Shown piece by piece: positions 10,113 through 28,808 of a stretch of 32,000 bases of DNA (positions within the stretch are counted from its first letter, which is position 1; every line of letters begins with the position of its first letter). Under the pieces are notes generated by a model, which made no database searches, was not told the DNA's origin, and saw nothing but the letters and a program-made list of their open reading frames with translations. Source of the stretch: Desulfatiglandaceae bacterium (GTDB lineage: Bacteria > Desulfobacterota > DSM-4660 > Desulfatiglandales > Desulfatiglandaceae); NCBI GenBank assembly GCA_041753575.1, contig JBGSUA010000033.1, positions 58,091-90,090 of the forward strand, given 5' to 3'. Both the position numbers and the translations under genes were made by a program.

Positions 10113-10146
10113 AGATTTTCCTCGCAAAATAGTCTAGTTTTCTCAA

Positions 10147-11214: not shown

Positions 11215-11252
11215 GAGCGCCTCCTGAGAAATTGTGTATTAATCGTAACTAA

Positions 11253-11418
11253 TCAGGTTGTCAGGTTCACTGTTCACGGTTTAAATGAAAATGCTTCCAA
11301 CTTATTGACCATTTTCATCTTTCGTTGTGCCCTACCCGGGCATGGCCGTTAGCTAGTTGGCTTTCGTTCTTCATAGCTCTCTAACCTTGAACCGCGAACC
11401 CCTGAACTTTGAACCTGA
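11253..11418. repeat. Long imperfect dyad built from phased GGTT(C) and GAAC(C) arrays
   Basis: Left arm 11253-11282: tcaGGTTgtcaGGTTCactGTTCacGGTT. Right arm 11383-11418: AACCttGAACCgcGAACCcctGAACtttGAACCtga. Outer 7 bp (tcaggtt/aacctga) are perfectly complementary, and inner blocks pair 6, 5 and 4 bp with bulges. A perfect 9-bp hairpin, atgaaaatg (11285-11293) / cattttcat (11310-11318), is nested between the arms. Confidence 0.6.
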
Positions 11419-11472
11419 GTATTTACTAATAATCTAAGTATTCAGGTTATTAGGCTGTAGGCTGATAGCCTG

Positions 11473-11533
11473 TTAGTCATTGCGTATGGCATTCTCTTGA
11501 AGCTCTGCAATCTAAAAGCCTACAGGCTATCTA
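11473..11533 (+). repeat. 61-nt dispersed intergenic element, copy 1
   Basis: ttagtcattgcgtatggcat...taaaagcctacaggctatcta aligns without gaps to the reverse complement of 29116-29176. I counted 46/61 identities by hand. The ends are conserved (18/20 and 19/21) and the centre is variable (9/20). Confidence 0.65.
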
Positions 11534-11571
11534 ACCGTAACTAATAGAACTCATTAAGATCGTTGTTCCCG

Positions 11572-11669
11572 GGAGGACGTGAGAGTCGCATAAGGCGCCC
11601 GGCATGTACCCGGGGAAAGGCGATTGCACTTTCGATTTCATCAGGTCTCGAGCGACTCACACGTCCTTC
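11572..11669 (-). repeat. 18-nt inverted repeat (16/18) with 62-nt spacer, directly after the PpsA-like stop codon
   Basis: ggaggacgtgagagtcgc (11572-11589) versus gcgactcacacgtccttc (11652-11669). One mismatch becomes a G-U pair in RNA. An inner cccgg/ccggg mini-hairpin sits in the spacer. On the mRNA strand the stem begins 6 nt after the TAG at 11677-11675. Confidence 0.6.
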
Positions 11670-11674
11670 TACTG

Positions 11675-13531: not shown

Positions 13532-13586
13532 GATTTGCCTCCTTCTTGAGTTGGTTTGGGTTAACGAAAAATACCGGTTCACACAA

Positions 13587-13871: not shown

Positions 13872-14876
13872 ATGCTGAATCTTAACCAACTGAGGATCTT
13901 TTATCATACGGCAAAGCGCCTCAGCTTTACGGCCGCGGCAAGGGATCTTTTCATAACCCAGCCGGCGGTTTCCGCCCAGATGAAGAACTTTGAGGATCTT
14001 TGTGGGCTGAGACTGTTCAGGAAAAGGGGCAAAACCCTTCACCTGACGGAAGAGGGATCCATCCTCTATGAATTGTCAAAAAGGATATTTGAATGCGAAA
14101 GGGAGATGGAAAACGCCCTGGAGGAGATGAGAGAGCTGAAGCGGGGCGTCCTTCGGCTCGGGACTACAAAGACATACGCAAGATATTTTATGCCCGATAT
14201 TATTTCAAGGTTTCATGAAGCTTACCCGCATATCAAGGTGCAGTTAAACGAGGGAAGTTCCCTTGAGATGACTGAAAGCCTTCTGGATTTTCACAATGAG
14301 GTTGCCATAATAGCAAAGGCGACCGACCACCCTGATGTAGTCTTCAGTCCATTCAGCCAGGAGGAAGTGGTCCTTATTACAAGCCCGTGGCATCCCTTTC
14401 GGGGAAAGGGCTATGTGACGGTTGATGAACTTGCCTCTGAGCCCATAATCATGAAGGAAAAGGGCTCCGGAACAAGGAAACTTGCAAGTGAACTCTTTGC
14501 AGACAGAGGGCTCGTTCCCAATATCCTCATGGAGACAGGCAACACTGAATTCATCAAACAGCTTGTTCAGAAGGGTGAGGGAATTGCCTTTCTTGTAAAG
14601 GCGGCCGTTTCCTTTGAGTTGCAGGAGGGCAAACTGGGCGCGGTAAAAATTGCTGACAGGACTCTCTTGCTCGATGTGAGCATCGCCAGGCTCAGGAATC
14701 AGCCTCTGTCGCCAGCCGGAAGGGTCTTTCTGGATATGCTTGCCGAGATAGCTTCAGCGTGTGGAAAGTCGTCGAAGGGGCTGAGGGCCATCATGGCCGA
14801 TGTGCTGGCTACCCATTGGAATCTGCCATCTCATGGAGATACCGGGCGGCAAGCTCAGCAAAGGCAGGATCATTGA
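13872..14876 (+). CDS. LysR-family transcriptional regulator
   Basis: ORF 13830..14876. I prefer the ATG at 13872 (MLNLNQLRIFYHTAKRLSFTAAARDLFITQPAVSAQMKNFE is the canonical LysR wHTH N-terminus), which has a GGAAAGGA SD. The ATG at 13830 is an alternative. The C-terminal 68 nt overlap the convergent gene. Confidence 0.85.
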   Translation: MLNLNQLRIFYHTAKRLSFTAAARDLFITQPAVSAQMKNFEDLCGLRLFRKRGKTLHLTEEGSILYELSKRIFECEREMENALEEMRELKRGVLRLGTTKTYARYFMPDIISRFHEAYPHIKVQLNEGSSLEMTESLLDFHNEVAIIAKATDHPDVVFSPFSQEEVVLITSPWHPFRGKGYVTVDELASEPIIMKEKGSGTRKLASELFADRGLVPNILMETGNTEFIKQLVQKGEGIAFLVKAAVSFELQEGKLGAVKIADRTLLLDVSIARLRNQPLSPAGRVFLDMLAEIASACGKSSKGLRAIMADVLATHWNLPSHGDTGRQAQQRQDH

Positions 14877-16017
14877 CATGATAATCCGCCTCTAAGATCA
14901 TGATTCCTTTATCCAGTCTTTCCTTTATGGTTTCTAAAAAAATTCGCGTAAGGGCCTGATCAAAAAGGGGCGCCCCCTTACGGTCCGCCTCCGACCACCC
15001 CTTGAGCGGCACGAGCAGCCTCGTATGATGCGGTGCAAGATTGAGGCGCTCCGCCACGGTCTGAGCAATCTGTCTTGTCTCGTCAGCGCTCAGGCGTATG
15101 GCGGATCTGAAGTCGTAGAAAAAGACGGGTCTGTCTTTGTAAGCGTCAGGGACAGTGTCTCGGGTGAATTCGAGCACCGCGCAGTCAAGCCCGCCAGGCA
15201 CTACAAGGCGGGGCACATCTCTGCCATCCGGGGGTGCGAGTCTCTTAGGTCCGATTCCTTTGCAGTATCCGCCCTTGAGTTCGTCGGCGAATTCATGGGT
15301 AGCCAGATCCAGTATGCCGTCAAAAAGGCCTTCCGAGGCAAGCTCTTCCATTGCCATACCGCCCGTGCCGTTCGCATGGAAGGCTATCACCTCATATCCC
15401 AGGGCCTCAAGGGCCGCCCTGGTGTGTTCGGCTCCCTCCGTTATAAATCCGAACATGGTGAGAGCTATTCTCTTCCTGGGAGAACCCGGCCTCCATTTGG
15501 CCCTTGCCATGGCGCACACGGCCTCAGCAGCCCTGTCAAGCACAGCGCCGGTTATGGAGTTTACCCCGAGCAGATCCACCACACTGTGCATCATGGTTAT
15601 GTCCTTTGTGCCTACAATCGCCGACATATCTCGAGAGGCCACCGTTGACAACATGACCTTTGGAATGCCGAGGGGCAGCACCTTCATAATGGATGTGCAG
15701 ATGTGGGTGCCGGTTCCTCCTCCGGCGCTGATGATCCCAGAGATGAGTCCTTTACCGAAAAGCTCTTCAACCAGCTCCCTTGCCCTTGAAATGACCAAGG
15801 CTATAGCCTCATCACGGCTTCCGGATGGTTCGGATTCATTAAGAAGTTCGCTATGGATATCAAAGTCAGGGTCAAAAAGAGGGCGGCCCTTGGTTCCGAC
15901 GTTGATTGTCAGAGCCTTGAGTCCAAGGGCCTCTATTCGGTTTTTGAGGAAGAGGTGTTCCTCACCCTTTGAGTCAAAGGTGCCCAAGACGGCAATAACT
16001 GTTTTTTCTGCGCTCAA
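14809..16017 (-). CDS. UPF0261 / Tm-1-like ATP-binding domain protein (paralogue 2)
   Basis: 402 aa. VIAVLGTFDSKGEEHLFLKNRIE and AGGGTGTHICTSIMKVLPLGIPKVMLST are collinear with the 5100..6344 protein. Only a TTG start is available near the family N-terminus, and the SD is weak. Confidence 0.7.
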   Translation of the reverse strand: MSAEKTVIAVLGTFDSKGEEHLFLKNRIEALGLKALTINVGTKGRPLFDPDFDIHSELLNESEPSGSRDEAIALVISRARELVEELFGKGLISGIISAGGGTGTHICTSIMKVLPLGIPKVMLSTVASRDMSAIVGTKDITMMHSVVDLLGVNSITGAVLDRAAEAVCAMARAKWRPGSPRKRIALTMFGFITEGAEHTRAALEALGYEVIAFHANGTGGMAMEELASEGLFDGILDLATHEFADELKGGYCKGIGPKRLAPPDGRDVPRLVVPGGLDCAVLEFTRDTVPDAYKDRPVFFYDFRSAIRLSADETRQIAQTVAERLNLAPHHTRLLVPLKGWSEADRKGAPLFDQALTRIFLETIKERLDKGIMILEADYHVNDPAFAELAARYLHEMADSNG

Positions 16018-16093: not shown

Positions 16094-16876
16094 CTAATAC
16101 CTGGATTCCGCGACGGCCTTCGGTTTTGTAAGTATTACGGCAATGTCCACGGCCTCTTCCGATGTGCCGCCATCCTGCCGGATCTTCACGGCCAGGGTCC
16201 CTGCCGCATCCTTTCTTTCCACCCCTGAGACAACGGCCTCCAGTATCTTGAGTCCCTTCAATCCCAGGGCCTGTGGCATGAATCCATCCCGGAATTCCCG
16301 GCACAGGGGTGAAACAAGGATAATTTCTAACTCAGGATTGCGGTGAAGAGCAAGAATAGACTCATTGACCCCAAGAATAAGGGAGGAAAGGAGATACGCA
16401 TCCCCACCCTTTGGAGCCCCCTGAATGATGGCGATTCTCTTGGGTACCTCTCCGTCAAGAGATGATACCACAAGCCCGTCTGTAGGCCCTGTGGGAGAGA
16501 GCATCCTCTCAAATTGAAGATCTGTGATCACATTGGCAAAAGATCCGTAGCCAAGTTCCCTGGGGATTTTTTCAAAGGTGTTGTCCTGACCCGCGGTGGT
16601 GACTACCTCATCAAATTCAAGGTCAAGGATCTGATCCGGGATACTGAAATCAATCGCCTCAGGCTTGCATTCGGCCCAGCACAGGGCGCATCCCAGGCAT
16701 CTTCTGCAGCTCAGACACCTTTTTGCTTCTGTTATGGCCGTTTCCTCAGGAAAGCCTGTTTCGACCTCGGTAAAATTTCCCTTTCTTTCCGCGACCGTTA
16801 TCTCCGGCATTTCAGCCCGTTCGGCCGGGACGTCGAAAAATGGGATGATATATCTTCGTTCTTTTTCGTAGATCAT
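16094..16876 (-). CDS. Ferredoxin-like plus HdrA-middle-domain protein, degenerate (FeS Cys cluster lost)
   Basis: 260 aa. The ATG abuts the TAG of the upstream gene, with a GAGGAG SD. EAKRCLSCRRCLGCALCWAECKPEAI and NVITDLQFERMLSPTGPTDG are collinear with the HdrL-like segment [26 protein letters not shown]...[20 protein letters not shown]. Where HdrL has QCVGSRD...YCSSVCCMY, this protein has IIQGAPKGGDAYLLSSL. Confidence 0.65.
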   Translation of the reverse strand: MIYEKERRYIIPFFDVPAERAEMPEITVAERKGNFTEVETGFPEETAITEAKRCLSCRRCLGCALCWAECKPEAIDFSIPDQILDLEFDEVVTTAGQDNTFEKIPRELGYGSFANVITDLQFERMLSPTGPTDGLVVSSLDGEVPKRIAIIQGAPKGGDAYLLSSLILGVNESILALHRNPELEIILVSPLCREFRDGFMPQALGLKGLKILEAVVSGVERKDAAGTLAVKIRQDGGTSEEAVDIAVILTKPKAVAESRY

Positions 16877-18550
16877 CTATTTGCTCCTCAGGTATTCGTG
16901 AATCCCCAGGGCGCCCTTCTTGCCGCCTGCGATGGCCCTGATGGCGATATCGGGTCCCGAAACCACGTCGCCACCGGCGAAAACGCCGGGTATGTTGGTC
17001 TCGCCTGTGTATGGATCTATCTCAAAAGTTCCGTATCTGGAGATCTTGAAGGTGTGATCCTGAGGAAGCATCGAGAGGTCTGTCCCCTGGCTTATGGCGG
17101 GAACTATGGTTTCGGCCTCGATGACATATTCTGAGCCGGTTTTTGGTACCGGCCTTCTTCTTCCGGATGCGTCAGGCTCACCCAGTTCCATCTTTATGCA
17201 CTTCATGCCTGTGGTCTTCTGTCCATCGCCAATAATCTCAACAGGGGCTGCCAGATACTGAAGCTTAATCCCTTCATGTTCCGCCGCGTCAATCTCCCAT
17301 GGGTTGGCAGGCATCTCCTTCTTGGTCCTTCTGTAAAGGATATAGACTTCATCAAAACCCATGCGCCAGCCCACCCTGGCTGAGTCTATGGCCGCGTTTC
17401 CTCCCCCAATGACAATGATCTTTCCCTTGGCCTGCGGAAGCCTCCCTAATGCCTGTTCCCTCAGAAAGGTAACGCAGTCAATCACACCCTTGCCCTGGTA
17501 TTCATCTTCTCCGGGCACGGCGAGCTTAAGTCCCCTGTGGCACCCGGCGCCGACAAAAAGGGCATCAAAGTTTTTCTTCAGATCATCAAAGGATATGTCC
17601 TTGCCCATCCTGGTATTATAATGGATCTCAACTCCCATGGAGCAGATCAGATCCACTTCCCTCTGAAGGATCTTTTTGGGGAGGCGGTATTCCGGGATTC
17701 CCACCCAGAGGTATCCGCCAGGGATTGGCAGTGCCTCGAAGATCTCTATGTCTTTGTAACCAAGCCTTGCAAGGTCGTAGGCGCAGGCGAGACCGGCAGG
17801 ACCAGCGCCCACAATGCCTACTTTCTCAGGATATTTCTTGACGGGTGTTTCGTATGCCGGCTCAACACCTTTAGACAGCTCGACGTCTGACACAAACCGC
17901 TTGAGAAAACAAATGCTTATTGGCTTGTCGAGATATTGTCTGTTACAAGCGGTCTCGCACGGATGAGGGCATATTCGGCCTATGCTTCCTGGCAGGGGAA
18001 GCCTGTCTCTGATTACGGCTAGTGATTCGAGGTACTTTCCGTCAGCGATAAGGCCCACGTAGGAACGAATATCAAGATTTGCCGGGCATGTCCTTTGACA
18101 GACAGGCATTTCCTCCTTGAATATGTTGTATTCGCCGGTAATGGGATTGCAGAAATCAACAGCGGTTCTAAAGCCAAGACCCTCGTTGAAGTCATCGAAC
18201 ATGTTGACAGGACACACTCTTATGCAGGCCTTGCAGTCGGTGCACTTGGAGTTGTCAACGCGGATGCTCCTTTTGAGGATTTTGGCATTTACCTTGCCGC
18301 TATCCTTTCGCAATCTCTTGATCTCACTGTAGGTAAGGATGTCAATGGAGCTGTTTGAACGCACCTTTTCAAGATCCGGATTAACAAAGGCGTTTTCCGG
18401 GGTTATGAGCCGATCTCTGGGGATGCGCTCCGCGCCAAGGGTTGGGAACTTCTCAAGGATGGTAACCTTGGCTCCTGCCTGGGCCCTTTCAAGAGCCGCG
18501 TTTACGCCCTCAAGACCCCCTCCGATAATCAATATTTTTCTGCTTTCCAC
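16877..18550 (-). CDS. Fusion of a degenerate HdrA N-terminal FAD segment, ferredoxin and a GltD/NfnB-type NAD(P)H-binding flavoprotein
   Basis: ORF 16877..18619 (TTG), trimmed to the GTG at 18550 (VESRKILIIGGGLEG). AAGAGG lies 9 nt upstream, and the start is 5 nt after the upstream TGA stop. GltD hallmarks: GRICPHPCETACNR, VGIVGAGPAGLACAYDL, IIVIGGGNAAIDSAR and GVFAGGDVVSG. Confidence 0.8.
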   Translation of the reverse strand: MESRKILIIGGGLEGVNAALERAQAGAKVTILEKFPTLGAERIPRDRLITPENAFVNPDLEKVRSNSSIDILTYSEIKRLRKDSGKVNAKILKRSIRVDNSKCTDCKACIRVCPVNMFDDFNEGLGFRTAVDFCNPITGEYNIFKEEMPVCQRTCPANLDIRSYVGLIADGKYLESLAVIRDRLPLPGSIGRICPHPCETACNRQYLDKPISICFLKRFVSDVELSKGVEPAYETPVKKYPEKVGIVGAGPAGLACAYDLARLGYKDIEIFEALPIPGGYLWVGIPEYRLPKKILQREVDLICSMGVEIHYNTRMGKDISFDDLKKNFDALFVGAGCHRGLKLAVPGEDEYQGKGVIDCVTFLREQALGRLPQAKGKIIVIGGGNAAIDSARVGWRMGFDEVYILYRRTKKEMPANPWEIDAAEHEGIKLQYLAAPVEIIGDGQKTTGMKCIKMELGEPDASGRRRPVPKTGSEYVIEAETIVPAISQGTDLSMLPQDHTFKISRYGTFEIDPYTGETNIPGVFAGGDVVSGPDIAIRAIAGGKKGALGIHEYLRSK

Positions 18551-18554
18551 TTTG

Positions 18555-19337
18555 TCATACCTCTTTAGGAGCGAGTGTATAGAGAGGACTTTGGCCGGCA
18601 ATCCTGTCCAGAACCACAAAGCCCTTTCGCTTCAGAGCCAGTATATGGCGAAAGACCTTTTCGACAGGCATGGAAAAGGAAGCGGCCAGATCCTTTACAG
18701 ATCGCGCCCCTTCCCTGAGCCCTGCAATGATCTCCTGGACCTCTGTCTCCTCAACTATAATCATGTCAACTGCGCGTTTGAATTCGTGCTCTGTAAAGAC
18801 CTCACCGTACATGTTGCCTTTCGTGAGGAACGGAGTCCTTTTTCCGATCACCCATCTGATCTTTTCTCCCGCTAGAACCGCTTCAGCACTCTCAAGTTTC
18901 TTGTGGAGCCGCGATGTCTCAAGACGATCGCCTCCTGCTCCCAGCGGCCCCAATTCTTTTATCTTTTCTGTAAATTCTGTGACGATCTTTACAAAGACCG
19001 ATGCCTCGCCTGAGGAGCATTGCCTGAAGGCCAGCCTTTCAGGGTTCATGCCCACGTAATCGAAGACTCTCCTGGCGACATCGAGTTTTGCCTTAGCCTG
19101 AAAGTTGCCGCTTATGTAATGACAGTCGCCGAAGTAGCAACCCACGACCAGCAATCCGTCAAGGCCTTTCTTGAAGGCCCTTGCCGTGATGGCAGGGTCA
19201 AGCCTGCCGGTGCACATGATGCGCACGATTCTGATATCCGGGGTATATTGTAGTCTGGAAACTCCAGCCAGGTCCGCTGCCGAGTAACCTCACCAGGTGC
19301 AGCAGAAGGTCAGTATCTTGGGAGCAAATTCACCCAC
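18555..19337 (-). CDS. mvhD: MvhD-like (BamF-like) FeS protein with in-frame Sec codon and about 127-aa C-terminal extension
   Basis: GTG at 19337, with AGGAGG 6 nt upstream. Reads [50 protein letters not shown]...LLVVGCYFGDCHY. ORF-track entry 18555..19226 is only the part downstream of the TGA. 260 codons. Confidence 0.8.
19290..19292 (-). other. In-frame UGA read as selenocysteine (MvhD-like copy 2)
   Basis: The TGA falls where the paralogue at 23891..24310 has Cys ([15 protein letters not shown] versus [15 protein letters not shown]). The frame continues for 244 further codons. Confidence 0.75.
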
Positions 19338-19456: not shown

Positions 19457-21127
19457 TCAGCCCAGGAATGCCGCTATCTGAGCGTCAATCTGATCGTCCG
19501 TGAAAGAGTTAATGGTAAGAGCGTGCTGATAACAGGTAGCGGCGCATACCCCGCATCCCTTGCACGCGACATCTATCACCTTGACCTTTCTACCTTTGTC
19601 AGTCTTTTGAACCTCAAGTGCCCCGTAAGGACAAAGCGCTACGCACAATCCGCAGCCTCTGCACGCGTCCACATCGGCCAGAACCGATATGATCGGCTCC
19701 ACAACAACCGATCCCTTGGAAAGGGGTATGGATGCTCTTGATGCAGCCCCCAGACCCTGGGCAATAGCCTCGCGTAAGTTTGCGGGGAACCGGGCGCTGC
19801 CGCAAAGGAAAACACCGTCCGTCGCGAAATCAAGGGGTTTGAGTTTGACGTGACCTTCCAGGAAAAATCCGTTTTCGTCAACGGGCACCCTTATGAGCTT
19901 TCCGACCTCGTCGGCGTCCTCCTGGGAAAGCAGTGGAGTAGAAAGCACCACCATATCGGCCGGCAGTTCCATATCCTTTCCTAAAAGTGCGTTATATACC
20001 AGGACGGAACCGGTCTGGACCTGAGGAGGCCTGTCCGGGTTGTAGTTTACATATCTGATACCCTTCGCTTTAGATTCCCGGAACATCTCCTCGTTTTCCA
20101 CCCCATACATCTGCATATCTCTGTATAGTATGGTGACCTTTGTCGCCGGGTCTTTATCCTTTATCAAGAGAGCGTTTTTGACGGCGGTCTGGCAGCAGAT
20201 TCTGGAGCAGTAAGGCCTTTCTTCGTTTCTGGCTCCGGCGCACTGGATCATCACCACGCTTTTGACCGAGGGATCAAGCCCTTGTTTCAGTCTGGGCTCC
20301 AGCTCAAGCTGCGTGATGACCCTCTCGGCGTCGTATCCGTAAAGGCCGGTAGGGACAAAGACCCTCGCACCGGTGGCTATGATTACGACCCCCAGATCAA
20401 TTTTCTTGGTCCCGGTTGGTGTCTCTATATCAGCGCTGTATTTCCCTATGAAACCCTCTACCCCTGTTACCCTTGATCCTGTGAAGGTCGTTATCTTCGG
20501 ATGGCATGACACAGCTTTTACTGTGCTTTCGGCTAACTGCAAAGCGTCAGTCATGGATGGGCCAAGTTTATTCAGGTTAAGGAGCATGCCCCCCAGCCTT
20601 CCTTCCCTTTCAACGATAACTACTTCGTAGCCTCTGTTCGCGAGCGCAAGCGCCGCGGTCATACCGGAGATGCCGCCGCCGATCACAAGCGCTCTTGGAA
20701 AGACGGGGCTCATTATGGGCTTCTGGGGCTCTAGAAGGGCGGCCTTGGCTATCCCCATTCGTATGAGATCCTTGGCCTTGCTGGTGGCTTCTTCCTTCTC
20801 CTGCATGTGGACCCAGGAGCATTGGTCCCTTATGTTGACCATCTCAAAGAGATAAGGATTGAGGCCTGCCTCGCCGCACGAACTCCTGAAAAGGGGTTCA
20901 TGTGTCCGGGGGGTGCAGGAAGCCACAACCACCCTGTTGAGGTTTTGCTGGCCAATGGCCTTCTTGATCTCGTTTATGCCTCCCTCAGAGCAGGTATAGA
21001 GGTTTCTTTGAACAAAGGCCACATTGGGGAGGGTTTCCGCGTATGCTCCGAGGGCCTCCATATCGAGATATCCTGCGATATTTGAGCCGCAGTGGCAGAT
21101 GAACACACCTATCCTAATCTCATCCAT
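19457..21127 (-). CDS. hdrA: HdrA-like flavoprotein (N-terminal Cys domain, FAD domain and two C-terminal ferredoxin motifs); second half of a BamE-like unit
   Basis: ORF 19457..21142 (TTG), trimmed to the ATG at 21127 (MDEIRIGVFICHCGSNIAGY). [36 protein letters not shown] and the C-terminal CRGCGLCVALCP/CKGCGVCAATC motifs are collinear with the C-terminal 550 aa of the 24345..28808 protein. Confidence 0.85.
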   Translation of the reverse strand: MDEIRIGVFICHCGSNIAGYLDMEALGAYAETLPNVAFVQRNLYTCSEGGINEIKKAIGQQNLNRVVVASCTPRTHEPLFRSSCGEAGLNPYLFEMVNIRDQCSWVHMQEKEEATSKAKDLIRMGIAKAALLEPQKPIMSPVFPRALVIGGGISGMTAALALANRGYEVVIVEREGRLGGMLLNLNKLGPSMTDALQLAESTVKAVSCHPKITTFTGSRVTGVEGFIGKYSADIETPTGTKKIDLGVVIIATGARVFVPTGLYGYDAERVITQLELEPRLKQGLDPSVKSVVMIQCAGARNEERPYCSRICCQTAVKNALLIKDKDPATKVTILYRDMQMYGVENEEMFRESKAKGIRYVNYNPDRPPQVQTGSVLVYNALLGKDMELPADMVVLSTPLLSQEDADEVGKLIRVPVDENGFFLEGHVKLKPLDFATDGVFLCGSARFPANLREAIAQGLGAASRASIPLSKGSVVVEPIISVLADVDACRGCGLCVALCPYGALEVQKTDKGRKVKVIDVACKGCGVCAATCYQHALTINSFTDDQIDAQIAAFLG

Positions 21128-21131
21128 TTTA

Positions 21132-22676
21132 TCAGCAGGCAACGGCTTTCTCCTTCCCTGAATAGTAATGGAACGCTATCTCAGCCGCCCTGGCAGCCGC
21201 ACTGGATGCCTGAGCGACCGATTCGGGTACATCCATTGGGGCCTGAGCGCAGCCGCATACAAAAACCCCAGGCACGTTGGTGTCCACGGGCGAAATCGGG
21301 CTGGTCTTTATGAAATTGTATTTATCAAGCTCCACGCCAAGTTTCTTTGAGAGTTCGACAATCCCCCTGGTAGGGGCGCAGGCCGTAGCCAGGATTACCA
21401 TATCGAACTCCTGGCTTTTCACCTTTCTCTCCTTTGTGTCTTCGTAGGTGACAACAGGATTATTGTTTTCGCCTCCGGTTATCTCAGCCACTCGGCCCCT
21501 TACGTACGTTATGTTGGAATGATTTCCGCCCCTGATCTTGTATTCCTCAAAACCCTTGCCCACAGCCCTTATGTCCATGCCGAATATGGTGGAAGTGGTC
21601 TCCCTCCCATGTTCGTGAGCTATGATAGCCTCTTTTATGGAGTGCATGCAGCAGTATCCGGAGCAGAAGGGAAAAAATCTGAAGTCTCTTGAACCTACGC
21701 ACTGGACAAAGGCAAGGCGCTTGGCTACACTGAACCCGGATGCTTTCGCCTTCATGGCCTCAAGGGAGGTCTGCATGGGGAGAAACTCCTCATACTTCTC
21801 AGCCCACTTGGCCCTGTCGGAGTCATCTCCGTAATCACCACTCCGGTATTTCAAGATGAAATCCGATGATTTTTCACCGTATTTTTCCTCGTATTTTTCC
21901 AGCGCCTTTACTGCCTTTTCAGCTTTTTTCTCCAGTTCGGCAAGCTCCGACTCTATGGCCCTGTCAGAGGGCCGATCAAGATGCCCGCCTGTAGGTCCGC
22001 TTGCGCTCAAAAGCCTTTCGAATTCTATCGCGGTGACGACGTTCGGCAGGTCCCTGTAGTGATATTCGGGGATCCTGGAAGGGTCAAAGACATCATATCC
22101 AGCCGCAACGATTATGGAGGCGACATCAATTTCGACTATCCTGTCTTTTTGATCGAAGTTGACCGCCTTTGCCTGGCAGGTCTTGGCGCAGATACCGCAT
22201 TTTTTCCCGTTAAGCTGCCGACAGTGGGCCGGATCTATGGTATGGGTAGATGGTATGCCCTGGGCGAAGAGGCTGTATATGGCCTTTCTGGTTCCAAGTC
22301 CCTCATTAAAGGAGTCAGGCACAACAGTCGGGCATTTCTCCTTACAGGCCCCGCAGCCTGTACATTTATCCTCATCCACATATCGGGCTTTTCGGCGGAT
22401 AGTCACCTTGAAGGCGCCCGCTTCACCTTCGACCTTTTCAACTTCGCTGTAGGCCAGGAGCTTAATGTTTGGATGTCGACCGACATCCAGCATCTTCGGC
22501 GAGAGAATTCAGATGGCGCAGTCGTTTGTTGGGAATGTCTTGTCGAGCTGAGCCATCTTCCCGCCTACGCTGGGAAGTCTCTCCACCAGGTGCACCTTGA
22601 TGCCCATATCTGCGAGATCAAGGGACGTCTGGATGCCGGCAATGCCTCCTCCGATAACAAGGACGTCTTTAGTCAT
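21132..22676 (-). CDS. hdrA: HdrA-like flavoprotein with in-frame Sec codon; first half of a BamE-like unit
   Basis: ATG at 22676. Reads [79 protein letters not shown]-track entry 21132..22493 is the post-TGA part. Also [32 protein letters not shown] and QCVGSRD...FCSGYCCMH. 514 codons. Confidence 0.85.
22509..22511 (-). other. In-frame UGA read as selenocysteine (HdrA motif DCxx[C/U]IL)
   Basis: The TGA is the 56th codon from the ATG at 22676. The flanking FPTNDCAI / ILSPKM is the conserved HdrA active-site stretch. Confidence 0.8.
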
Positions 22677-22723: not shown

Positions 22724-23860
22724 TCAAACAGCGGTCGCGCCGGGTTTAATCCGCTCGGCCACCATGTCGTAAAGGTCAACTATCTCTATGCCAAGATCAA
22801 ACGCTGACTTGGCGCACCGGAAATGAATCTGGCATTTGGGACAGGCAGTCACAAGGGTATCCGCTCCTGTCGCGGAAGCCTCCTTCAGTCTTTCAAGCTG
22901 TATCGCCTTGCTGCAGCTTGAGCAGTTCATCCATCCGGTGGTTCCGCAGCAGACAGCGTTTTCTCTCGATCTCGGCATCTCTGTTAGTTCCACGCCCGGC
23001 ATGGCCTTGATGATGGCCCTGGGGGCATCAAAGATGCCGGCAAGCCTGCCGAGTCTGCACGGGTCGTGGTAGGTCACTTGGGCCTTTGATTCCGTGAAAC
23101 TGATCAATCCCTGGGAGGCCTTTTCACTCAGGAGATCAATTATATGAACGGGCTCAAACCCCAGTTCACCGAAATAGCGGGGATAGTAACGCTTGAATGT
23201 GAGGTAGCCTTCCGGACAACTGAAGACGACCCTCTTCGCCCCTGAGGATCTGATCAGTTCAATGTTTTTAAAGGCCAATTTCTTGAATTTATCCTCATCT
23301 CCGTTCCAAAGTGCATCGTGGCCGCAGCAGCGCTCATCATTGCTGACAACAGGTATCTCACCCATGGCATTGAGTATGGACACAATGTTTCTAGAACTCT
23401 TTATGGATCCGGCATTTATGTCCCTGAAGACCACATCAAAATATGGGCGGCATCCGACGAAATAGAAAAGGTCTCCCTTTTCAGCCGTCTTGAGGCCTTC
23501 AAGCCAGAAGTTTCTCTTCTGCGCCATTTCCCCGGTCTGTATGGAAGTTATGGTCTGTAGCATGCCGTTGTGCGCGGGCACTCCGTCAAAGCCCATTTGG
23601 TGTGCCTCGTCTCTCATGAGGCGCACGAATTCCGGGAAATCTATGTTGGCTGGACACCTGACGCTGCACTGGGCGCAGGTCAGGCAGCTCCAGATGGTTC
23701 CATCCGATGGTTCTTCCAGACCGTAGAGGGATCTTTCTATGATCTGGCGTGGTGAAAAATCACTGAATACCCTGGCCACAGGACAACTTCCTGTGCAGAC
23801 TCCGCAGTCCAGGCAGTAGTAGGTCTTTGTTGCGTCTATTAACTGGGCAATTGCAGTCAT
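22724..23860 (-). CDS. HdrD-like / BamD-like protein (HdrC-type 2x[4Fe-4S] N-terminus plus two HdrB-type CCG domains)
   Basis: 378 aa. CLDCGVCTGSCP and CLTCAQCSVRCP ferredoxin motifs. CCG-type motifs FVGCRPYF...ERCCGHD and YHDPCRLGR...AVCCGTTGW. Confidence 0.85.
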   Translation of the reverse strand: MTAIAQLIDATKTYYCLDCGVCTGSCPVARVFSDFSPRQIIERSLYGLEEPSDGTIWSCLTCAQCSVRCPANIDFPEFVRLMRDEAHQMGFDGVPAHNGMLQTITSIQTGEMAQKRNFWLEGLKTAEKGDLFYFVGCRPYFDVVFRDINAGSIKSSRNIVSILNAMGEIPVVSNDERCCGHDALWNGDEDKFKKLAFKNIELIRSSGAKRVVFSCPEGYLTFKRYYPRYFGELGFEPVHIIDLLSEKASQGLISFTESKAQVTYHDPCRLGRLAGIFDAPRAIIKAMPGVELTEMPRSRENAVCCGTTGWMNCSSCSKAIQLERLKEASATGADTLVTACPKCQIHFRCAKSAFDLGIEIVDLYDMVAERIKPGATAV

Positions 23861-23890: not shown

Positions 23891-24310
23891 TCAGGCCGCC
23901 TTGCGAAGAGGCGAGGGGCCTATGGCCTTGACTTGTCGCGTGAATTCAGTGGCAACCTGAGCGAATTTTGTGCCTTCTGCAGATGAGATCCATTCAAGGC
24001 GCAGTCTGATCGGATCAATTCCCAGAATGACGGCCAACTCCCTGGTCATTGCGAACATCTTTTCTGCCTTTACATTACCGTCCAGGTAATGACAGTCACC
24101 GATGTGTCAGCCTGCGACCAATACCCCGTCGGCCCCCTGTTCAAAGGCCTTCAGGATGAAATTGGGATTTATCCTGCCTGAGCACATGACCCGGATTATC
24201 CTCATGTTAGGAGGATACTGGAATCGGCTCACTCCGGCAAGGTCCGCAGCCGAATAGGCGCACCAGTTGCAGGCGAAGGTTACTATCTTTGGACTGAACT
24301 CCTCGTTCAT
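23891..24310 (-). CDS. mvhD: MvhD-like FeS protein with in-frame Sec codon
   Basis: [26 protein letters not shown]...[30 protein letters not shown]...[10 protein letters not shown], with a stop at 23893-23891. I counted 72 codons after the TGA by hand. The ATG at 24310 has GGAGGAG 9 nt upstream; the alternative ATG at 24328 has its SD too close. ORF track lists only 24107..24328. Confidence 0.8.
24107..24109 (-). other. In-frame UGA read as selenocysteine (MvhD motif G[C/U]HxGDCHY)
   Basis: The paralogue at 18555..19337 has Cys in this column (LLVVGCYFGDCHY versus VLVAG-U-HIGDCHY). Confidence 0.75.
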
Positions 24311-24344
24311 GCTGCTGAACTCCTCCATACCTCAAATAAGGACC

Positions 24345-27300
24345 TCAAATGCCCTGGTGCAGCGCTGCGTGCACCATGGTGAGGACCTCTTGGTCGTCAA
24401 AGTGAAATATGCTGGCCGCCCCGGTGGGGCAAGCCACCGCGCAGGAGCCGCATCCCTTGCAGAGGGCCTCCTGAACAAAGGCCACAGTTCTTCCTCCCTC
24501 CCTTTCAACAAGGGAGACGGCATTATAGGGGCATACTTCAACGCACTTGCCGCAGCCCCTGCACATGCTCTCAGTCACATGAGAGACAACCCCTTCAACT
24601 GTAAGCTCCTTCTTCGATAGCACAACCGAGGCCCTTGATGCGGCTGCCTTTGCCTGGGCTATACTTTCCTCAATGGGCTTGGGATAATGTGCCATCCCGG
24701 CCAGAAAAATTCCATCAGTTGCGAATTCCACAGGTCGCAGTTTTGCGTGTGCTTCCATGAAGAAACCGTCCTGATTAAGCGGAAGCTTGAATATCTGTGC
24801 GAGGGCACTGTTATCCGCTGGGATAATGGCTGATGCAAGCGCCACAAGATCTGCGCGGAGCCTGATTTTTCGATCTAAAATATGATCTTTCACAGTTACC
24901 CAAAGCTCGGATCCATCTTTTTGAACCTCAGGCTTATCGTTGAGGGTATATCTTATGAATATAACTCCCTTGGCTCTGGCATCTCTATAAAGGGCTTCTC
25001 TTTGCCCATAGGTTCTTATGTCTCTATAAAGGACATAAATATCCATTTCCGGATTAAGTTCTTTGAGTTCCAGCGCGGACTTGATGCTGTGGGTACAGCA
25101 GACTTTTGAGCAGTAAGGTCTGGAAGGCTCCCTTGACCCCACACACTGTATGAAGACGGCGGCTTTGGCCTCCGATATACGGATGTCCTTGCCTGTGATC
25201 GCCCTGTCAAGCTCAAGATGGGTCATAACCCTCGAGTCTTCTCCGTATAGATACTCTTTGGGCTTGCATTCCTCGGCGCCGACCGCCATCACGACCGCTC
25301 CGTGGCGGATCTGGGTATCTTTTTCTCCCTGCCCTATGGCGGTCTCGAAGTTGCCTACAAAACCACTGCTTTGCCTGATCACAGCATCTGTGTAGAGATC
25401 AATTAATGGGTGACTTTTAACCCTCTCGATCATCTCAGACAAAGATCTGCCTATTTCTTCCCCTCTCCACGTTGAAACAAGGTTCCTTGCGTTGCCTCCC
25501 AGTTCACTTGCCTTCTCTACCAGGGTAGTCCTGTAGCCCTGATCAGCAAGAGAAAGAGCTGATGTCATTCCGGCTATTCCTCCGCCGATGACGAGAGCCC
25601 TGTCGTCTACTCCAATGGTAGGCTGTGGAAGGGGGGTTATGAGCCTAGCCCTGGCCACTGACATTCTAACAAGATCCATAGCTTTCTGGGTTGCTTGCTC
25701 TTTCTCCCTGCTGTGGACCCAGGAGCACTGGTTGCGTATATTTGCCATCTCAAAAAGGTACTTATTGAGGCCTGCATCTCTCAATGTTTCTTGAAAAAGC
25801 GGCTCGTGAGTCCTTGGAGTACATGCCGCCACCACAACCCGATTCAGTTTCTCCCTCTGGATTACCTCCTTCAACTTGTCCTGAGTGTCCTGGGAACAGG
25901 TGAAGAGATTTTCCTCCACATAGGCTACACTTGGCAGGGATCGAGCGTATTTTACAACCTCAGGCACATTGACTATGCCACCAATGTTAGTTCCGCAATT
26001 GCAGACAAAAACACCGATTCTCGGTTTTTCATCTGAGACATCCCGTTCCGGGGGATAGATTCTTTCCTTTACAAGGCTGCCCCGAGCGGAGGAAAGTTTG
26101 GCCTTAACGTCACACGCCGCTGCGCTTGCCTCCATTACAGAATATGGTATATCCTTTGGTTCCTGAAATGCGCCGCATACATAAACACCTGGTCTGGATG
26201 TTGCCACTGGTGAGAAGCTTCCGGTGTCAACAAAACCGTCTTTGTCGAGTGAGATCTCAAGTCTTTCTGCCAGTGCCTTAAGAGACGCGGGGGTCTCGAG
26301 CCCGACAGAGAGAACAACAAGGTCAAAGATCTCTTCCCTGGGTGTTCCGTCCTCATCAGCATACCTTATGATCAGGTCGTTCGTTTCGCCAACCTCTTCT
26401 ATGGAATGGATCCTCGATCGGATATATCGAACTCCCATCTCTTCCCTGGCACGGTTGTAATAACCTTCGAAGTCCTTCCCGTAAGTTCGCATATCCATGA
26501 AAAAGATGGCAGTATCAAGGTCTCCGCCGGCATGCTCCTTGGCAATTACGGCCTCCTTGGTTGCATACATGCAACACACAGAGGAACAGTAGGAATGATC
26601 GCACTGGTTGATGTCTCGGGAACCAACGCATTGGAGCCAGGCAATCTTATGAGGGTGTTGTCCGTCAGAGGGCCGCTTGAGCTGCCCCTGATAAGGGCCT
26701 GTTGAACTCAGGATCCTCTCAAACTCCATGCTGGTCACAACGTTGGGAAATCCGGCGTAGCGATAGGTCTCGTAGCGGCTGGGATCAAAAGGCTCAAAAC
26801 CCGGTGCGAGAATCACGGACCCAGCCTTTATTTTCAGGAGATCACTCACCTGTGCATGGGTTTCGAGTGTGACAGCCTGTGCTTTGCATGCAGTGACGCA
26901 TTGATAACATTCGCAGCATCCTCCGCAGTTGAGACAGCGATTGGCCTCTTCAGAAGCGTCTTTTTCGCTGGCGCAGAGGTTTACCTCCTGAAAACCGGAA
27001 AGCCTTTGTTCCGGGGGCATGGTAGGCGCATGCATTCTATGCCTTATGGGTTCCTCCTTGGAAATTGAAAGCCAATGGTCTCCCATGGGGGGGCCTTCTT
27101 CCCATTCTGTTGGAAGGACTTCACCTTGCAGATATTTGGAGATATAAGTTGCAGCTCGCTTTCCGGCCTCCACCGCTTCAATTACCGTAGCGGGGCCTGT
27201 AATGAGATCTCCGCCTGCGAAGATTCCTGGCTGGTTGGTCTGAAGTGTTTCTGGGTTTACTACCAGTGTGTTCCATCTCGATATCTCAAACCTGGAATCC

Positions 27301-28808
27301 TTCCCCAAATTTCCGAGGTCTGGTTCCTGACCAACAGCAGGTATGATATGCTCCGCCTCGATAAAGAATTCCGATCCTTCTATAGGAATCGGCTTTCTTC
27401 TCCCGGTGGAATCGAGTTCTGAGAGTTTTGTCCTTATGCATTCTATTCCTGAAACGTTGTTCCCATTACTGGCGATCTTGAGAGGAGCCACCAATAAATG
27501 AATCTTGATTCCCTCAATTTCGGCCTCCTGGATTTCTTCTGGTTCAGCAAGCATCTCTGCCTTTGACCGTCTGTAAATGATATGGGCCTCGCTAGCTCCA
27601 AGCCTTAGTGCGACCCTGGCGGCATCCAGGGCTGAATGTCCCCCTCCGATTACCACCACCCGGCCTTTTAAGGAAGATAGTTTTCCAAGGTGTACTTCTC
27701 TCAGAAAGGTTATTACATCTACAACTCCCAGGGCCTCCTCTCCTGCTATTCGCATCTTGAGTCCCTTCCAGGCCCCAATTGCAAGAAATATCGCGTTGGC
27801 GCCGTGTGCCTGTAAGTCTTCCAAAGTGATGTCTTTGCCTAGTGAAACATTTGTTTGAATGGCTATGCCGAAGCGGGAAAGGTTATTTATCTCTGCATCC
27901 AGGACACTTCTTGGGAGGCGATGCTCAGGAATTCCGTAACGCATCATTCCTCCAGCCTCCGGCATTGCCTCGTAAACGGTAACCCGGTAACCATCGAGAG
28001 CAAGAAAATAGGCTGCAGTAAGACCTGCAGGGCCTGATCCTATTACAGCAACATGCGCTTTTCTGGGTGTTATATTTGGAACTGGGAGATCGCTGAGGTT
28101 TACGTGGTCGGCTGCTACACGTTTTAACTCCTTTATGGATATAGGCTCATCAACCTCGAGCCTGCGACAGCTCTTTTCGCAGCGATGAGGACATACCCTT
28201 CCCAGAACCCCTGGGAAAGGGAGATCCTTCATTATGATCTCAATGGCTTCTCGGTACTTCCCCGCCTTCACCATCTGGACATACCCCTGCACGTTTAAGT
28301 GGGCCGGGCATGCCATCCGGCAGGGGGCCTTGTCCAGTTTCTCTATGGCAAAACCTCCGGGTATGGCCTGGGCATAGGGTTTAAAGATAGCCTTCCTTTT
28401 AGCAAGGCCCTCGTCATATTCGCTGGGCCTCACAACGGGGCAGGCCTGAGCGCAATCCCCGCACGCCGTGCAGCGGGCAGGATCAATATATCTGGGGGTT
28501 CTTCTGACAGCGACCTCGAGGTTGCCTTCTTCTCCTTCAATGCTTTCTATGTTAGAACAGGTAAGAAGCTCGATGTTGGTGTGCCGGCCGACCTCGACCA
28601 GCTTGGGCGAGATAATTCACATGGCGCAGTCGTTAGTTGGAAAGGTCTTGTCAAGCTGTGCCATCACGCCGCCTATGGCCGGCGACTTCTCAACGAGATA
28701 AACGTAATAACCGGCGTCGGCGAGATCCAGGGCCGACTGCATGCCGGCGATTCCTCCTCCTACCACTACAACAGACCCTTCTATATGCTGGGTTTTTTTT
28801 GCTTCCAT
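24345..28808 (-). CDS. hdrL: Giant HdrL-like selenoprotein: HdrA FAD domain interrupted by a GltD/NfnB-type NAD(P)H module, followed by a second complete HdrA unit
   Basis: ATG at 28808 with an AAGGAG SD. Reads [78 protein letters not shown]..., in frame with ORF 24345..28433 (125 codons upstream of that ORF's first residue). Total 1487 codons. GltD motifs [29 protein letters not shown] and [15 protein letters not shown]. Second HdrA unit: [15 protein letters not shown]...[18 protein letters not shown]...[24 protein letters not shown]. Confidence 0.85.
28617..28619 (-). other. In-frame UGA read as selenocysteine (HdrA motif DCxx[C/U]I)
   Basis: This is the stop codon of ORF-track entry 28617..28808. 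The reading frame continues uninterrupted into ORF 24345..28433. Confidence 0.8.

Follow-up and report, generated by a model that had tools for sequence, protein, structure and literature searches.

Two MvhD-type adaptors of one Hdr operon encode selenocysteine at different conserved cysteine columns, each state kept in its own lineage

The window analysed here is a 32,000-nucleotide stretch of contig JBGSUA010000033.1 from a Desulfatiglandaceae bacterium. As judged from its genes, one block of the window is a conserved eight-gene Hdr-type cluster for flavin-based electron bifurcation, in the order hdrL, mvhD1, an hdrBC-like gene, hdrA (two genes), mvhD2, a gltD-like gene and a small Fe-S gene:

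24345 to 28808, minus strand: hdrL-like gene, an HdrA with an inserted GltD/NAD(P)H-binding module, 1487 codons; partner of mvhD1
28617 to 28619, minus strand: selenocysteine (Sec) codon of the hdrL-like gene, residue 64, in FPTNDCAM-U, with a SECIS-like hairpin
23891 to 24328, minus strand: mvhD1, short MvhD/FlpD [2Fe-2S] adaptor, 145 codons, ending in TGA
22724 to 23860, minus strand: hdrBC/HdrD-like gene, a 4Fe-4S dicluster and two CCG domains
21132 to 22676, minus strand: N-terminal half of hdrA2, with Sec at residue 56 in FPTNDCAI-U (22509 to 22511)
19457 to 21142, minus strand: second hdrA-like gene, with N-terminal Cys-rich, FAD and C-terminal ferredoxin domains, immediately upstream of mvhD2
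18555 to 19337, minus strand: mvhD2, long BamF-like MvhD adaptor, 260 codons, ending in TGA
16877 to 18619, minus strand: GltD-like NAD(P)H-binding flavoprotein with HdrA-derived segments; synteny kept in 71 of 80 loci
16094 to 16876, minus strand: small Fe-S/HdrA-fragment protein, the last gene of the conserved block; synteny kept in 42 of 80 loci

The cluster contains two HdrA modules, each with its own MvhD-type [2Fe-2S] adaptor. mvhD1 lies next to and downstream of the hdrL-like gene, mvhD2 occupies the same position relative to the second hdrA-like gene, and both arrangements are conserved across loci. The C-x-x-U motif is carried by both partner HdrA proteins and is conserved in 126 of the 127 HdrA motifs across the loci. 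The orthologous loci were collected from Desulfobacterales and Syntrophobacteraceae genomes, using the hdrBC/HdrD-like gene as a neutral probe; there are 80 of them (L001 to L080), and 47 are informative for the adaptor pair. A link of the cluster with the adjacent phenol-degradation genes was considered and rejected, as those genes are not conserved neighbours.

Both adaptors match all 123 positions of the Pfam FlpD model (PF02662), scoring well beyond its gathering threshold, with E values of 5e-54 for mvhD1 and 3e-46 for mvhD2. The translation of 23891-24328 has one internal in-frame TGA, in the context VLVAG-U-HIGDCHY. The start of mvhD1 is probably the ATG at 24310 rather than position 24328, which would give a protein of 139 codons, because GGAGGAG lies upstream of it and it agrees with the N-termini of homologues. 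mvhD2 starts with GTG, has GGAGG upstream, and likewise contains a single internal in-frame TGA (translation of 18555-19337), which places Sec at residue 16. Its FlpD domain (residues 8-130) is followed by a helical linker and a C-terminal winged helix, an extension of 130 amino acids. In Foldseek comparisons of the AlphaFold2 model (pLDDT 86.7, pTM 0.82), the N-terminal part resembled MvhD chains and the C-terminal part resembled ArsR/SmtB and Zalpha winged helices, with a TM-target of up to 0.87 for the winged-helix proteins matched. Pfam TrmB/HTH_5 domains are present in some mvhD2 homologues.

The MvhD/FlpD family has five conserved cysteine columns, designated here C1 to C5 and found in the motifs C-x-x-C, M-C-x-G-R and G-C-x-x-G-D-C-H-Y. 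In translation these columns read C,C,C,U,C in mvhD1 and C,U,C,C,C in mvhD2, so that each adaptor keeps Cys where its paralogue has Sec. The sequence-only reading of this DNA had noticed the reciprocal placement and had named, as a possible objection, that a proper alignment might move one TGA off its Cys column. The two proteins align over 129 residues with 50% identity and no gaps; both also align gaplessly to the solved MvhD chains (E = 3e-50 for mvhD1 against PDB 5odc_D), with Cys or Sec at all five columns. Neither TGA can therefore be realigned away from its column, and the reciprocal placement is borne out by the full C4-Sec/C2-Sec pair in 42 of the 47 informative loci and a partial pair in 2 more. 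In two loci, L020 and L048, both adaptors are of the C4-Sec type, and L031 is without the second adaptor, indicating that the reciprocal arrangement is not obligatory.

The positions of the two Sec codons and of the hairpins that follow them are as follows:

24107 to 24109, minus strand: Sec codon (UGA) of mvhD1, column C4, in G-U-H-x-G-D-C-H-Y
24073 to 24091, minus strand: SECIS hairpin of the C4 UGA, CAUUACC-UGGAC-GGUAAUG, nucleotides 19-37 from the U of UGA, codons H-Y-L-D-G-N
19290 to 19292, minus strand: Sec codon (UGA) of mvhD2, column C2, in CCTW-U-GY (C-x-x-U)
19251 to 19270, minus strand: SECIS hairpin of the C2 UGA, nucleotides 23-42 after UGA, codons L-A-G-V-S-R-L

One could argue that at least one of these TGAs is not a Sec codon but a real stop, a lesion in a pseudogene, a fault of the assembly or the product of a reassigned code. 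Gene callers do treat them in this way, and database homologues of both adaptor families are either cut off at the UGA or show W, G or L in its place. However, the TGA is retained in all 71 full-length C4-Sec copies and in all 47 C2-Sec copies in related genomes, the reading frame and the domain remain intact downstream of it, and a synonymously constrained hairpin follows directly upon each. TGA is also the normal stop of 9 of the 18 genes in the window, including mvhD1 and mvhD2 themselves, and two further Sec codons of the operon lie at the position already known from HdrA. We consider this explanation, whose stop and pseudogene forms the sequence-only reading had also raised, to be effectively refuted. 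Taken together, the comparisons identify both TGAs as genuine Sec codons, each predicted to be recoded through its own SECIS hairpin within the coding sequence. The tRNA scan and the search of the open reading frames against family libraries detected no tRNA of any kind, tRNA-Sec included, and no sel genes within the window; the Sec machinery is implied by the presence of four Sec codons in one operon.

The nucleotides of the C4 hairpin are invariant in 76 unique orthologous sequences. Synonymous entropy at codons 80, 81, 82 and 84 is 0 in 62 mvhD1 orthologues, as compared with 0.94-1.0 in 45 mvhD2 orthologues, and the stem shows one compensatory pair, an A-U to G-C change found in L076-L078 and L080. 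The C2 hairpin consists of an upper stem and loop, CUGGA-GUU-UCCAG (nucleotides 26-38 from the U of UGA), a bulged A and a lower stem of 3 bp. This structure was defined as the invariant CUGGA-GUU-UCCAG hairpin with its pairs counted directly, whereas RNAalifold at default settings gave a poorer alternative. Here the pattern of constraint is the opposite one: the synonymous entropy of codons 31-35 is 0-0.22 in the mvhD2 orthologues but 0.72-0.94 at four of the five codons in the mvhD1 orthologues, the exception being Ser34 (0.18). The core of the C2 hairpin recurs in most of the C2-only Sec MvhDs from metagenomes, and both hairpins have loops that contain G and lie about 25-28 nucleotides past the UGA. 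When single sequences were folded and their minimum free energies compared with those of shuffled sequences, the evidence was weak: the C4 region gave z = -1.8 and the C2 region z = +0.76, no better than the shuffles, so that it is conservation that supports the C2 hairpin. At the gathering threshold Rfam gave no match anywhere in the window, SECIS elements included, and the support for both elements is thus drawn from the comparative analysis.

The sequence-only reading had described the pattern as a swap between the paralogues. A recent duplication followed by exchange was considered and rejected, because the two adaptors have a low identity and mvhD1 is closer to all-Cys MvhD homologues (69% identity) than to mvhD2, and the term does not fit states that are fixed by lineage across many species. 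The C4 state switches between Sec and Cys among MvhD-type proteins that are 81% identical, and metagenomes contain bacterial double-Sec (U/U) forms with two in-frame SECIS elements. C2 and C4 alternate between Sec and Cys independently within the family, and the two states seen here are old, separately conserved lineages.

Alternatively, the pattern might be historical rather than adaptive. A double-Sec, VhuD-like ancestor would have given rise to lineages that each lost one Sec neutrally, the other being kept because its reversal is costly. Double-Sec forms are indeed found in archaea, according to the literature, as well as in bacteria, and the core of the C4 hairpin (CAUUACC...GGUAAU) is common to mvhD1, the long C4 lineage and the double-Sec forms, which is compatible with common descent. 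The recurrence of this hairpin could, however, be convergence imposed by the H-Y/G-N codons, and the C2 hairpin is unlike between the C2-only and the double-Sec forms even though both encode the same peptide, ADLAGVSR. Moreover, a single TGA to TGY change would yield Cys, yet none of the 71 plus 47 copies has undergone it, which argues for purifying selection on Sec itself. We therefore think it unlikely that history accounts for the pattern, and favor two separately maintained Sec states.

To relate the two columns to known structures, residue numbers were mapped by alignment onto Methanothermobacter MvhD, which has Cys at 12, 13, 16, 42, 67 and 72 along with His68 and Asp71. Column C2 corresponds to Cys16 and column C4 to Cys67 of the M. 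marburgensis protein; all five Cys columns, His68 and Asp71 are conserved in mvhD1. PMC13580544 describes Cys16 as an 'additional' cysteine that is conserved and sits between the cluster and FAD, and it places His68 and Asp71 at the HdrA Cys202/205 site. Five cysteines are conserved, a [2Fe-2S] cluster needs four, and only Cys16 is termed additional; by elimination, C4 (Cys67) would be a cluster ligand. The predicted ligand set is C1, C3, C4 and C5, with C2 most plausibly a non-ligand cysteine. The general statement that the conserved cysteines of MvhD ligate the cluster, from which the sequence-only reading had started, is accordingly wrong for C2, and its own suggestion that one of the columns may not be a simple cluster ligand holds for that column, the site of the 'additional' Cys16 and of BamF Sec19.

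A different assignment of the two columns can be envisioned, in which C4 is not a permanent ligand and pairs with C2 in a redox-active (selenenyl)sulfide beside the cluster, like that of ferredoxin:thioredoxin reductase, so that Sec at either position would create the same Se-S bond. A preprint on BCRII compares the MvhD cysteine near the cluster to ferredoxin-dependent thioredoxin reductase chemistry and mentions a regulatory disulfide, and the occurrence of Sec at one partner, or at both (VhuD and the metagenomic U/U forms), would suit a bonded pair. Against this, there are only five conserved Cys columns for a cluster that needs four ligands, PMC13580544 marks Cys16 alone as additional, and C4 as a disulfide partner was not found in the literature searched. 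A C2-C4 bond seems very improbable to us, and we continue with C4 as the putative ligand and C2 as the free cysteine.

How these adaptors compare with known proteins bears on what is new here. VhuD, the D subunit of the F420-non-reducing hydrogenase of Methanococcales and Methanopyrus, shares with both adaptors the FlpD/MvhD fold family and the role of a [2Fe-2S] adaptor toward HdrA, and its HdrA partner, like those encoded here, has Sec in C-x-x-U. Its two Sec residues are reported to lie 50 codons apart, with a CxxU motif; this spacing and motif fit only the C2 and C4 pair, which implies that archaeal VhuD would carry Sec at both columns. A protein database search with the 5ODC MvhD sequence for the Sec columns of VhuD returned Cys isoforms only. 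Whereas VhuD has both Sec residues in one polypeptide served by a single archaeal SECIS in the 3'-UTR, the adaptors of this operon have one Sec and one in-frame bacterial SECIS per protein. VhuD also sits in a hydrogenase operon, and no hydrogenase genes are present in the window. The NCBIfam VhuD model (NF045873) gave 130.6 and 133.7 bits for the two adaptors, below its cut-off of 215.

In architecture mvhD2 resembles BamF from the class II benzoyl-CoA reductase of Geobacter metallireducens, an MvhD-type [2Fe-2S] adaptor that is more than 100 amino acids longer than MvhD, ends in a winged helix-turn-helix and feeds an HdrA-type bifurcating subunit. Through its description in the literature, BamF Sec19, at the cysteine near the cluster, maps to Sec16 (C2) of mvhD2; mvhD1 has no Sec there. 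BamF is encoded in the bamBCDEFGHI cluster, whereas the open reading frames of the window, judged by size and family, include neither BamB (tungsten AOR) nor BamGHI (HydABC-like) genes, and mvhD2 is followed by the GltD-like NAD(P)H module in their place. Because the bam context is absent, mvhD2 was rejected as BamF proper. The MvhD and ElpC subunits of the Mvh-Hdr, Fdh-Hdr-Fmd and Elp-Hdr complexes (5ODC, 7BKB, 8RVU) align without gaps at about 38-60% identity and, unlike the adaptors described here, have Cys at both C2 and C4. In Desulfobacterium autotrophicum HRM2, HdrL (a fusion of HdrA with a GltD-like NAD(P)H module) is followed by mvhD, and this one genome has a tandem hdrL/hdrA locus and several Sec-containing HdrA, HdrL and MvhD paralogues. 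This HdrL-MvhD module is matched by the 1487-codon reading frame of the window, with HdrA and GltD parts and Sec64 in C-x-x-U, followed by mvhD1. The D. autotrophicum paper does not say at which Cys column the individual MvhDs have Sec, and it reports no complementary pattern inside an operon. The sequence-only reading had supposed that the reciprocal pattern was undescribed. We found no paper that describes it in an operon, but neither position is new: Sec at C2 is already documented in BamF, and with VhuD both columns are known Sec sites in this protein family. The novelty is modest, lying in the arrangement and not in kind, and the operon is best seen as a well-documented case of the Sec/Cys plasticity already known from this selenoprotein family.

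Starting from these direct results (Sec codons, SECIS elements, conservation, column mapping and domain architectures), we infer ligation by C4 and the functional consequences that might follow. In mvhD2, Sec would stand in for the non-ligand cysteine at C2, equivalent to MvhD Cys16 and BamF Sec19, where a selenol may, by selenol or selenenylsulfide chemistry, ease the passage from the one-electron cluster to the two-electron flavin. In mvhD1, Sec would take over C4, equivalent to Cys67 and presumably one of the four cluster ligands. This position lies directly before the His and three residues before the Asp that touch the cysteine pair of HdrA in state 1a, and Sec here could form an Fe-Se bond and thereby alter the potential of the cluster and its electronic coupling toward HdrA. 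The two selenium sites would then share one face of the cluster but differ in their chemistry. The earlier proposal that the two relays differ in potential or reactivity is, as far as it concerns differing chemistry at the cluster, a reasonable one.

The two placements might instead be functionally equivalent, if all that matters is a single selenium on the exit face of the [2Fe-2S] cluster, across from the HdrA C-x-x-U, and C2 and C4 are alternative sites with the same mechanism. Both columns are on the side that faces HdrA, Cys16 lying between the cluster and FAD and the His68 and Asp71 that flank C4 and C5 touching the HdrA Cys pair (PMC13580544); U/C, C/U and U/U forms all occur naturally, with C4 changing its state between close relatives as described above, and long winged-helix adaptors are known with either state. 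On the other hand, the chemistry of a metal ligand is far from that of a free selenol in the second sphere, and each lineage has strictly kept its own state over dozens of species. In addition, a tally of the alignments showed that the residue following C4 is nearly always His in C4-Sec forms but variable in C2-Sec forms (Tyr in mvhD2, where MvhD and ElpC have His), which suggests that the two sites are under differing local constraints. Equivalence is in our view not a likely alternative. We regard it as quite likely that the operon encodes two genuine Sec adaptors with selenium at chemically distinct sites, descended from old separate lineages and not related by reciprocal exchange.

A more speculative possibility is that the selenium of the adaptors is the missing relay between the one-electron [2Fe-2S] cluster and the two-electron bifurcating flavin, the selenolate at C2 (free) or C4 (as a hemilabile ligand) transiently bonding with the Sec of the HdrA C-x-x-U. 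MvhD Cys16 and the HdrA Cys pair have been named in the literature as possible players. We consider such a relay doubtful, and decidedly improbable in this specific form. If it were true, the operon would hold two natural 'selenium-scan' versions of one step, and C4-Sec would give a natural [2Fe-2S] cluster with a selenium ligand, opening in the course of catalysis.

The public gene calls of both adaptor families are systematically wrong, being cut at the UGA or given Trp, Gly or Leu in its place, and as a result the Sec sites are missed by protein-level surveys. In this operon and in some 45 orthologous ones, selenium is placed at a second-sphere cysteine in one adaptor and at what is probably a neighbouring cluster ligand in the other, while both adaptors face an HdrA with its own C-x-x-U. 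Because selenium can serve as a label in both spectroscopy and crystallography (77Se EPR/ENDOR, anomalous scattering), these adaptors offer natural probes of the atom that communicates with the cluster and with HdrA.

The short MvhD/FlpD [2Fe-2S] adaptor gene mvhD1 and the long, BamF-like MvhD adaptor gene mvhD2 lie in one Hdr operon, and each translates with a single internal TGA.

Window 24328..23891, minus strand: mvhD1, 145 codons
Window 24107-24109, minus strand: in-frame TGA, Sec codon of mvhD1 at column C4
Window 19337..18555, minus strand: mvhD2, 260 codons
Window 19290-19292, minus strand: in-frame TGA, Sec codon of mvhD2 at column C2

Both translations matched the complete model of Pfam FlpD, the methyl-viologen-reducing hydrogenase delta subunit family (E 5e-54 for mvhD1 and 3e-46 for mvhD2). 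They align with each other over 129 residues with zero gaps and 50% identity, and the solved MvhD chains 5odc_D, 7bkb_F and 8rvu_F align to both without gaps. The conserved cysteine columns, numbered C1 (F-x-C), C2 (N/T-W-C), C3 (M-C-S/T-G-R), C4 (G-C-H/Y) and C5 (G-D-C-H-Y), read C,C,C,U,C in mvhD1 and C,U,C,C,C in mvhD2, where U is selenocysteine. The reciprocal Sec/Cys placement that the sequence-only reading had proposed for the two paralogues is thus borne out by the gapless alignment. The start of mvhD1 is most likely the ATG at 24310 rather than 24328, given the GGAGGAG upstream of it and its agreement with homologue N-termini.

All genes of the Hdr block are on the minus strand.

28808..24345, minus strand: hdrL, an HdrA into which a GltD-like NAD(P)H module is inserted; Sec64 in FPTNDCAM-U
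Following hdrL, minus strand: mvhD1, then the HdrBC/HdrD-like gene
Next, minus strand: N-terminal half of hdrA; Sec56 in FPTNDCAI-U
Next, minus strand: second hdrA-like gene, then mvhD2
After mvhD2, minus strand: GltD-like gene with HdrA-derived segments
Last in the block, minus strand: small Fe-S/HdrA-fragment gene
Window 28617-28619 and 22509-22511, minus strand: the two HdrA Sec codons, motif FPTNDC-x-x-U, each followed by a GC-rich hairpin

Related loci contain 127 occurrences of the HdrA motif, of which 126 read C-x-x-U; counterparts of this motif are the Cys/Sec pair of M. maripaludis HdrA (Sec197) and Cys59-Cys62 of BamE, and the HdrA pair has been considered as a candidate relay to FAD. 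Within 16094-18619 (minus strand), the N-terminal piece of the GltD-like protein matches HdrA2 positions 137-276 and the 260-aa protein after it matches positions 283-383, so that by these matches the two together look like HdrL split into separate genes. With the TTG given as its start codon (18619), the GltD-like gene would overlap the last 65 nt of mvhD2; translation probably begins elsewhere.

To follow the two Sec codons, we used the HdrBC-like gene between both mvhD genes (window 22727-23860, minus strand) as a probe that was taken as neutral. In species-representative genomes it identified 80 orthologous loci with 55-92% identity, almost all from Desulfobacterales MAGs and a few from Syntrophobacteraceae; across them the block from hdrL through the small Fe-S gene is a conserved unit. 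The loci were translated in six frames with TGA read-through and aligned to mvhD1. Full-length copies numbered 71 for the C4-Sec pattern (C,C,C,U,C) and 47 for the C2-Sec pattern (C,U,C,C,C), and none of them carried TGY where its lineage has Sec. The complete reciprocal pair was present in 42 of 47 informative loci (window included); a further two had the pair with a partial upstream copy, two (L020 and L048) had C4-Sec in both adaptors of the operon, and one (L031) had no second adaptor. Loci outside these 47 were interrupted by contig ends. A reassigned genetic code is ruled out because TGA is the normal stop of 9 of the 18 window genes, both mvhD genes among them. The conservation across genomes indicates that both TGAs are genuine Sec codons and that the reciprocal arrangement is real, robust and evolutionarily conserved.

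A hairpin follows each of these codons.

Window 24091..24073, minus strand: C4 hairpin CAUUACC-UGGAC-GGUAAUG, nt 19-37 from the U of UGA
Window 19270..19251, minus strand: C2 hairpin CUGGA-GUU-UCCAG with a bulged A and a 3-bp lower stem, nt 23-42 from the U of UGA

The window search of Rfam returned zero matching families for these hairpins, and single-sequence folding alone was not convincing. Normalised synonymous-codon entropy was determined for 62 unique mvhD1 and 45 unique mvhD2 orthologues.

Synonymous-codon entropy past the two UGA positions
Codons 80, 81, 82, 84, 85 (H,Y,L,G,N), mvhD1 (Sec at C4): 0, 0, 0, 0, 0.35
Codons 80, 81, 82, 84, 85, mvhD2 (Cys at C4): 1.0, 0.97, 0.94, 0.97, 0.92
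Codons 31-35 (A,G,V,S,R), mvhD1 (Cys at C2): 0.75, 0.94, 0.93, 0.18, 0.72
Codons 31-35, mvhD2 (Sec at C2): 0, 0.08, 0.08, 0, 0.22

No codon elsewhere in mvhD1 or mvhD2 had an entropy of 0.1 or less. Because the low values occur only there and only in the UGA-bearing paralogue, selection at the RNA level acts exactly 6-11 codons past the UGA; each UGA has its own SECIS element, and the paralogues serve as reciprocal synonymous-site controls. In Syntrophobacteraceae loci an A-U pair of the C4 stem has become G-C by compensatory change: CAU to CGU (His to Arg) is matched by AAU to AAC. The motif G-D-C-H-Y reads G-D-C-R-Y in L076, L077, L078 and L080, which are Syntrophobacteraceae-like. Since the CGU change is coupled with AAC on the opposite arm, it appears to be the stem structure that led to this substitution within a conserved protein motif in the four loci.

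The two columns map to different residues of MvhD. The database sequence of Methanothermobacter MvhD has Cys at 12, 13, 16, 42, 67 and 72, with His68 and Asp71, positions that agree with the numbering of PMC13580544. According to the account of Cys16 in that paper, C2, which is Cys16, is not a cluster ligand, and the earlier suspicion that one of the columns is not a simple ligand was right. As column 19 (Cys12) is variable, being Ala in mvhD1, we infer by elimination that the four ligands are C1, C3, C4 and C5. C4 aligns with Cys67, directly ahead of His68. The same paper describes a density of undetermined nature bound to the HdrA cysteine pair, coordinated by MvhD Asp71 and approached by His68, the His following C4. 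The residue after C4 (column 75; window 24104-24106 in mvhD1, 19137-19139 in mvhD2) is His in 72 of 74 C4-Sec proteins; in C2-Sec proteins it varies, with Tyr in most mvhD2 orthologues, while metagenomic forms have Arg, Trp, Lys or His. A preprint on class II benzoyl-CoA reductase of Geobacter gives the near-cluster MvhD cysteine as Sec19 in BamF; a selenenylsulfide intermediate was suggested there, yet the measured distances forbid direct exchange.

For the part of the mvhD2 ORF that follows the UGA, an AlphaFold2 model built with 32 homologues had pLDDT 86.7 and pTM 0.82. By Foldseek its N-terminal part resembles MvhD chains and its last ~60 residues winged-helix domains; the C-terminal 130 aa (window 18555-18945, minus strand) are predicted with high confidence to fold as helices plus a winged helix. 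The extension resembles ArsR/SmtB and Zalpha domains, and Pfam TrmB/HTH_5 is present in some homologues. This model agrees with BamF as published, in which the winged helix docks onto BamI. The window contains no BamB or BamGHI genes, and we therefore regard mvhD2 as BamF-like and reject BamF proper. HdrL-MvhD architecture and several Sec-containing MvhD paralogues have also been described in D. autotrophicum HRM2, without Sec positions.

Phenol-pathway genes were not found as conserved neighbours of the Hdr block in the 80 loci. In the window they form an anaerobic phenol/4-hydroxybenzoate set.

Window 750-13582: the whole set
Window 750-4608: 4-hydroxybenzoyl-CoA-reductase-like genes, alpha subunit barely under the equivalog cut-off
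Window 4478-5083: UbiX
Window 6344-7999: CoA ligase
Window 8712-10127: phenylphosphate carboxylase beta equivalog
Window 10147-13582: PEP-synthase-like pair

The phenol genes and the Hdr block are bordered by a pair of UPF0261 (Tm-1-like) paralogues, at 5100-6344 and 14809-16017 (minus strand).

Sec at both sites has precedent in the family. VhuD, the archaeal hydrogenase subunit, carries Sec at two separate positions with a spacing of 50 codons (PMC4989117), and a 2026 review lists MvhD/VhuD with a CxxU motif and two Sec residues. C2 and C4 (mvhD1 positions 23 and 74) would fit these sites, as the only pair in the gapless alignment that meets both the spacing and CxxU; a search of the protein database returned only Cys isoforms. 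A metagenome scan with C-x-W-TGA-x-Y-x-[GA]-A-D gave 120 loci, namely 104 C,U,C,C,C, five neighbouring copies with C,C,C,U,C, and 11 double-Sec C,U,C,U,C (L100, L110, L117, L132, L137, L140, L153, L156, L181, L187 and L197). The double-Sec genes are of bacterial type, as each of their two UGAs is followed by an in-frame hairpin. Their C4 hairpin is CAUUACC...GGUAAU, as elsewhere; their C2 hairpin, GCUGACC-UGGCU-GGGUCAGU, is unlike that of C2-only forms, though the same peptide ADLAGVSR is encoded. The L153 double-Sec protein shares 81% identity with a C2-only protein, so the residue at C4 alternates between Sec and Cys in closely related proteins. One L153 contig carries double-Sec and C2-only copies with 71% mutual identity. 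A third lineage combines a long adaptor and a winged-helix-like tail with Sec at C4.

L020:14456-15210, third-lineage adaptor
L048:14454-15230, third-lineage adaptor
L080:5156-5910, third-lineage adaptor

In L020 and L048 it stands in the place of mvhD2.

One possible origin of the pattern is an exchange of states between the adaptors, as the word "swap" in the sequence-only reading would imply. This is ruled out, because mvhD1 is 69% identical to the nearest all-Cys MvhD vs 50-53% to mvhD2, and each lineage holds its own Sec state throughout the genome set. The pattern is better read from these comparisons as two old adaptor lineages in a family with two independently varying sites, whose Sec residues reflect either separate gains or differential loss from a double-Sec ancestor. 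MvhD-family selenoproteins with Sec at C2 and/or C4 are a known kind of feature. We found no paper describing a complementary arrangement within one operon, and this pair is a new instance, not a new principle.

Most likely, two Hdr-type bifurcating modules would be fed by NAD(P)H-binding GltD-like domains, each wired via its own [2Fe-2S] adaptor. The mvhD2 product would most likely present a free selenol at second-sphere C2 toward the HdrA C-x-x-U pair, where selenenylsulfide chemistry may occur. In mvhD1, selenium would most likely enter the first coordination sphere at C4, beside the His/Asp that dock onto the HdrA C-x-x-U pair, with a putative Fe-Se bond and a possible shift in potential. 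Protein databases mis-call genes of both types: in the closest database relatives of mvhD1 (13 of 120) C4 is W, G or L, the TGA having been read under another code, and all mvhD2 relatives start downstream of the TGA (216-240 aa vs about 260).

P0001-P0010, P0240-P0359: mis-called database matches, Trp/Gly/Leu at UGA (mvhD1 type) or start after UGA (mvhD2 type)

The main value of the two adaptors is as a natural selenium-label pair at the step where MvhD hands over to HdrA.
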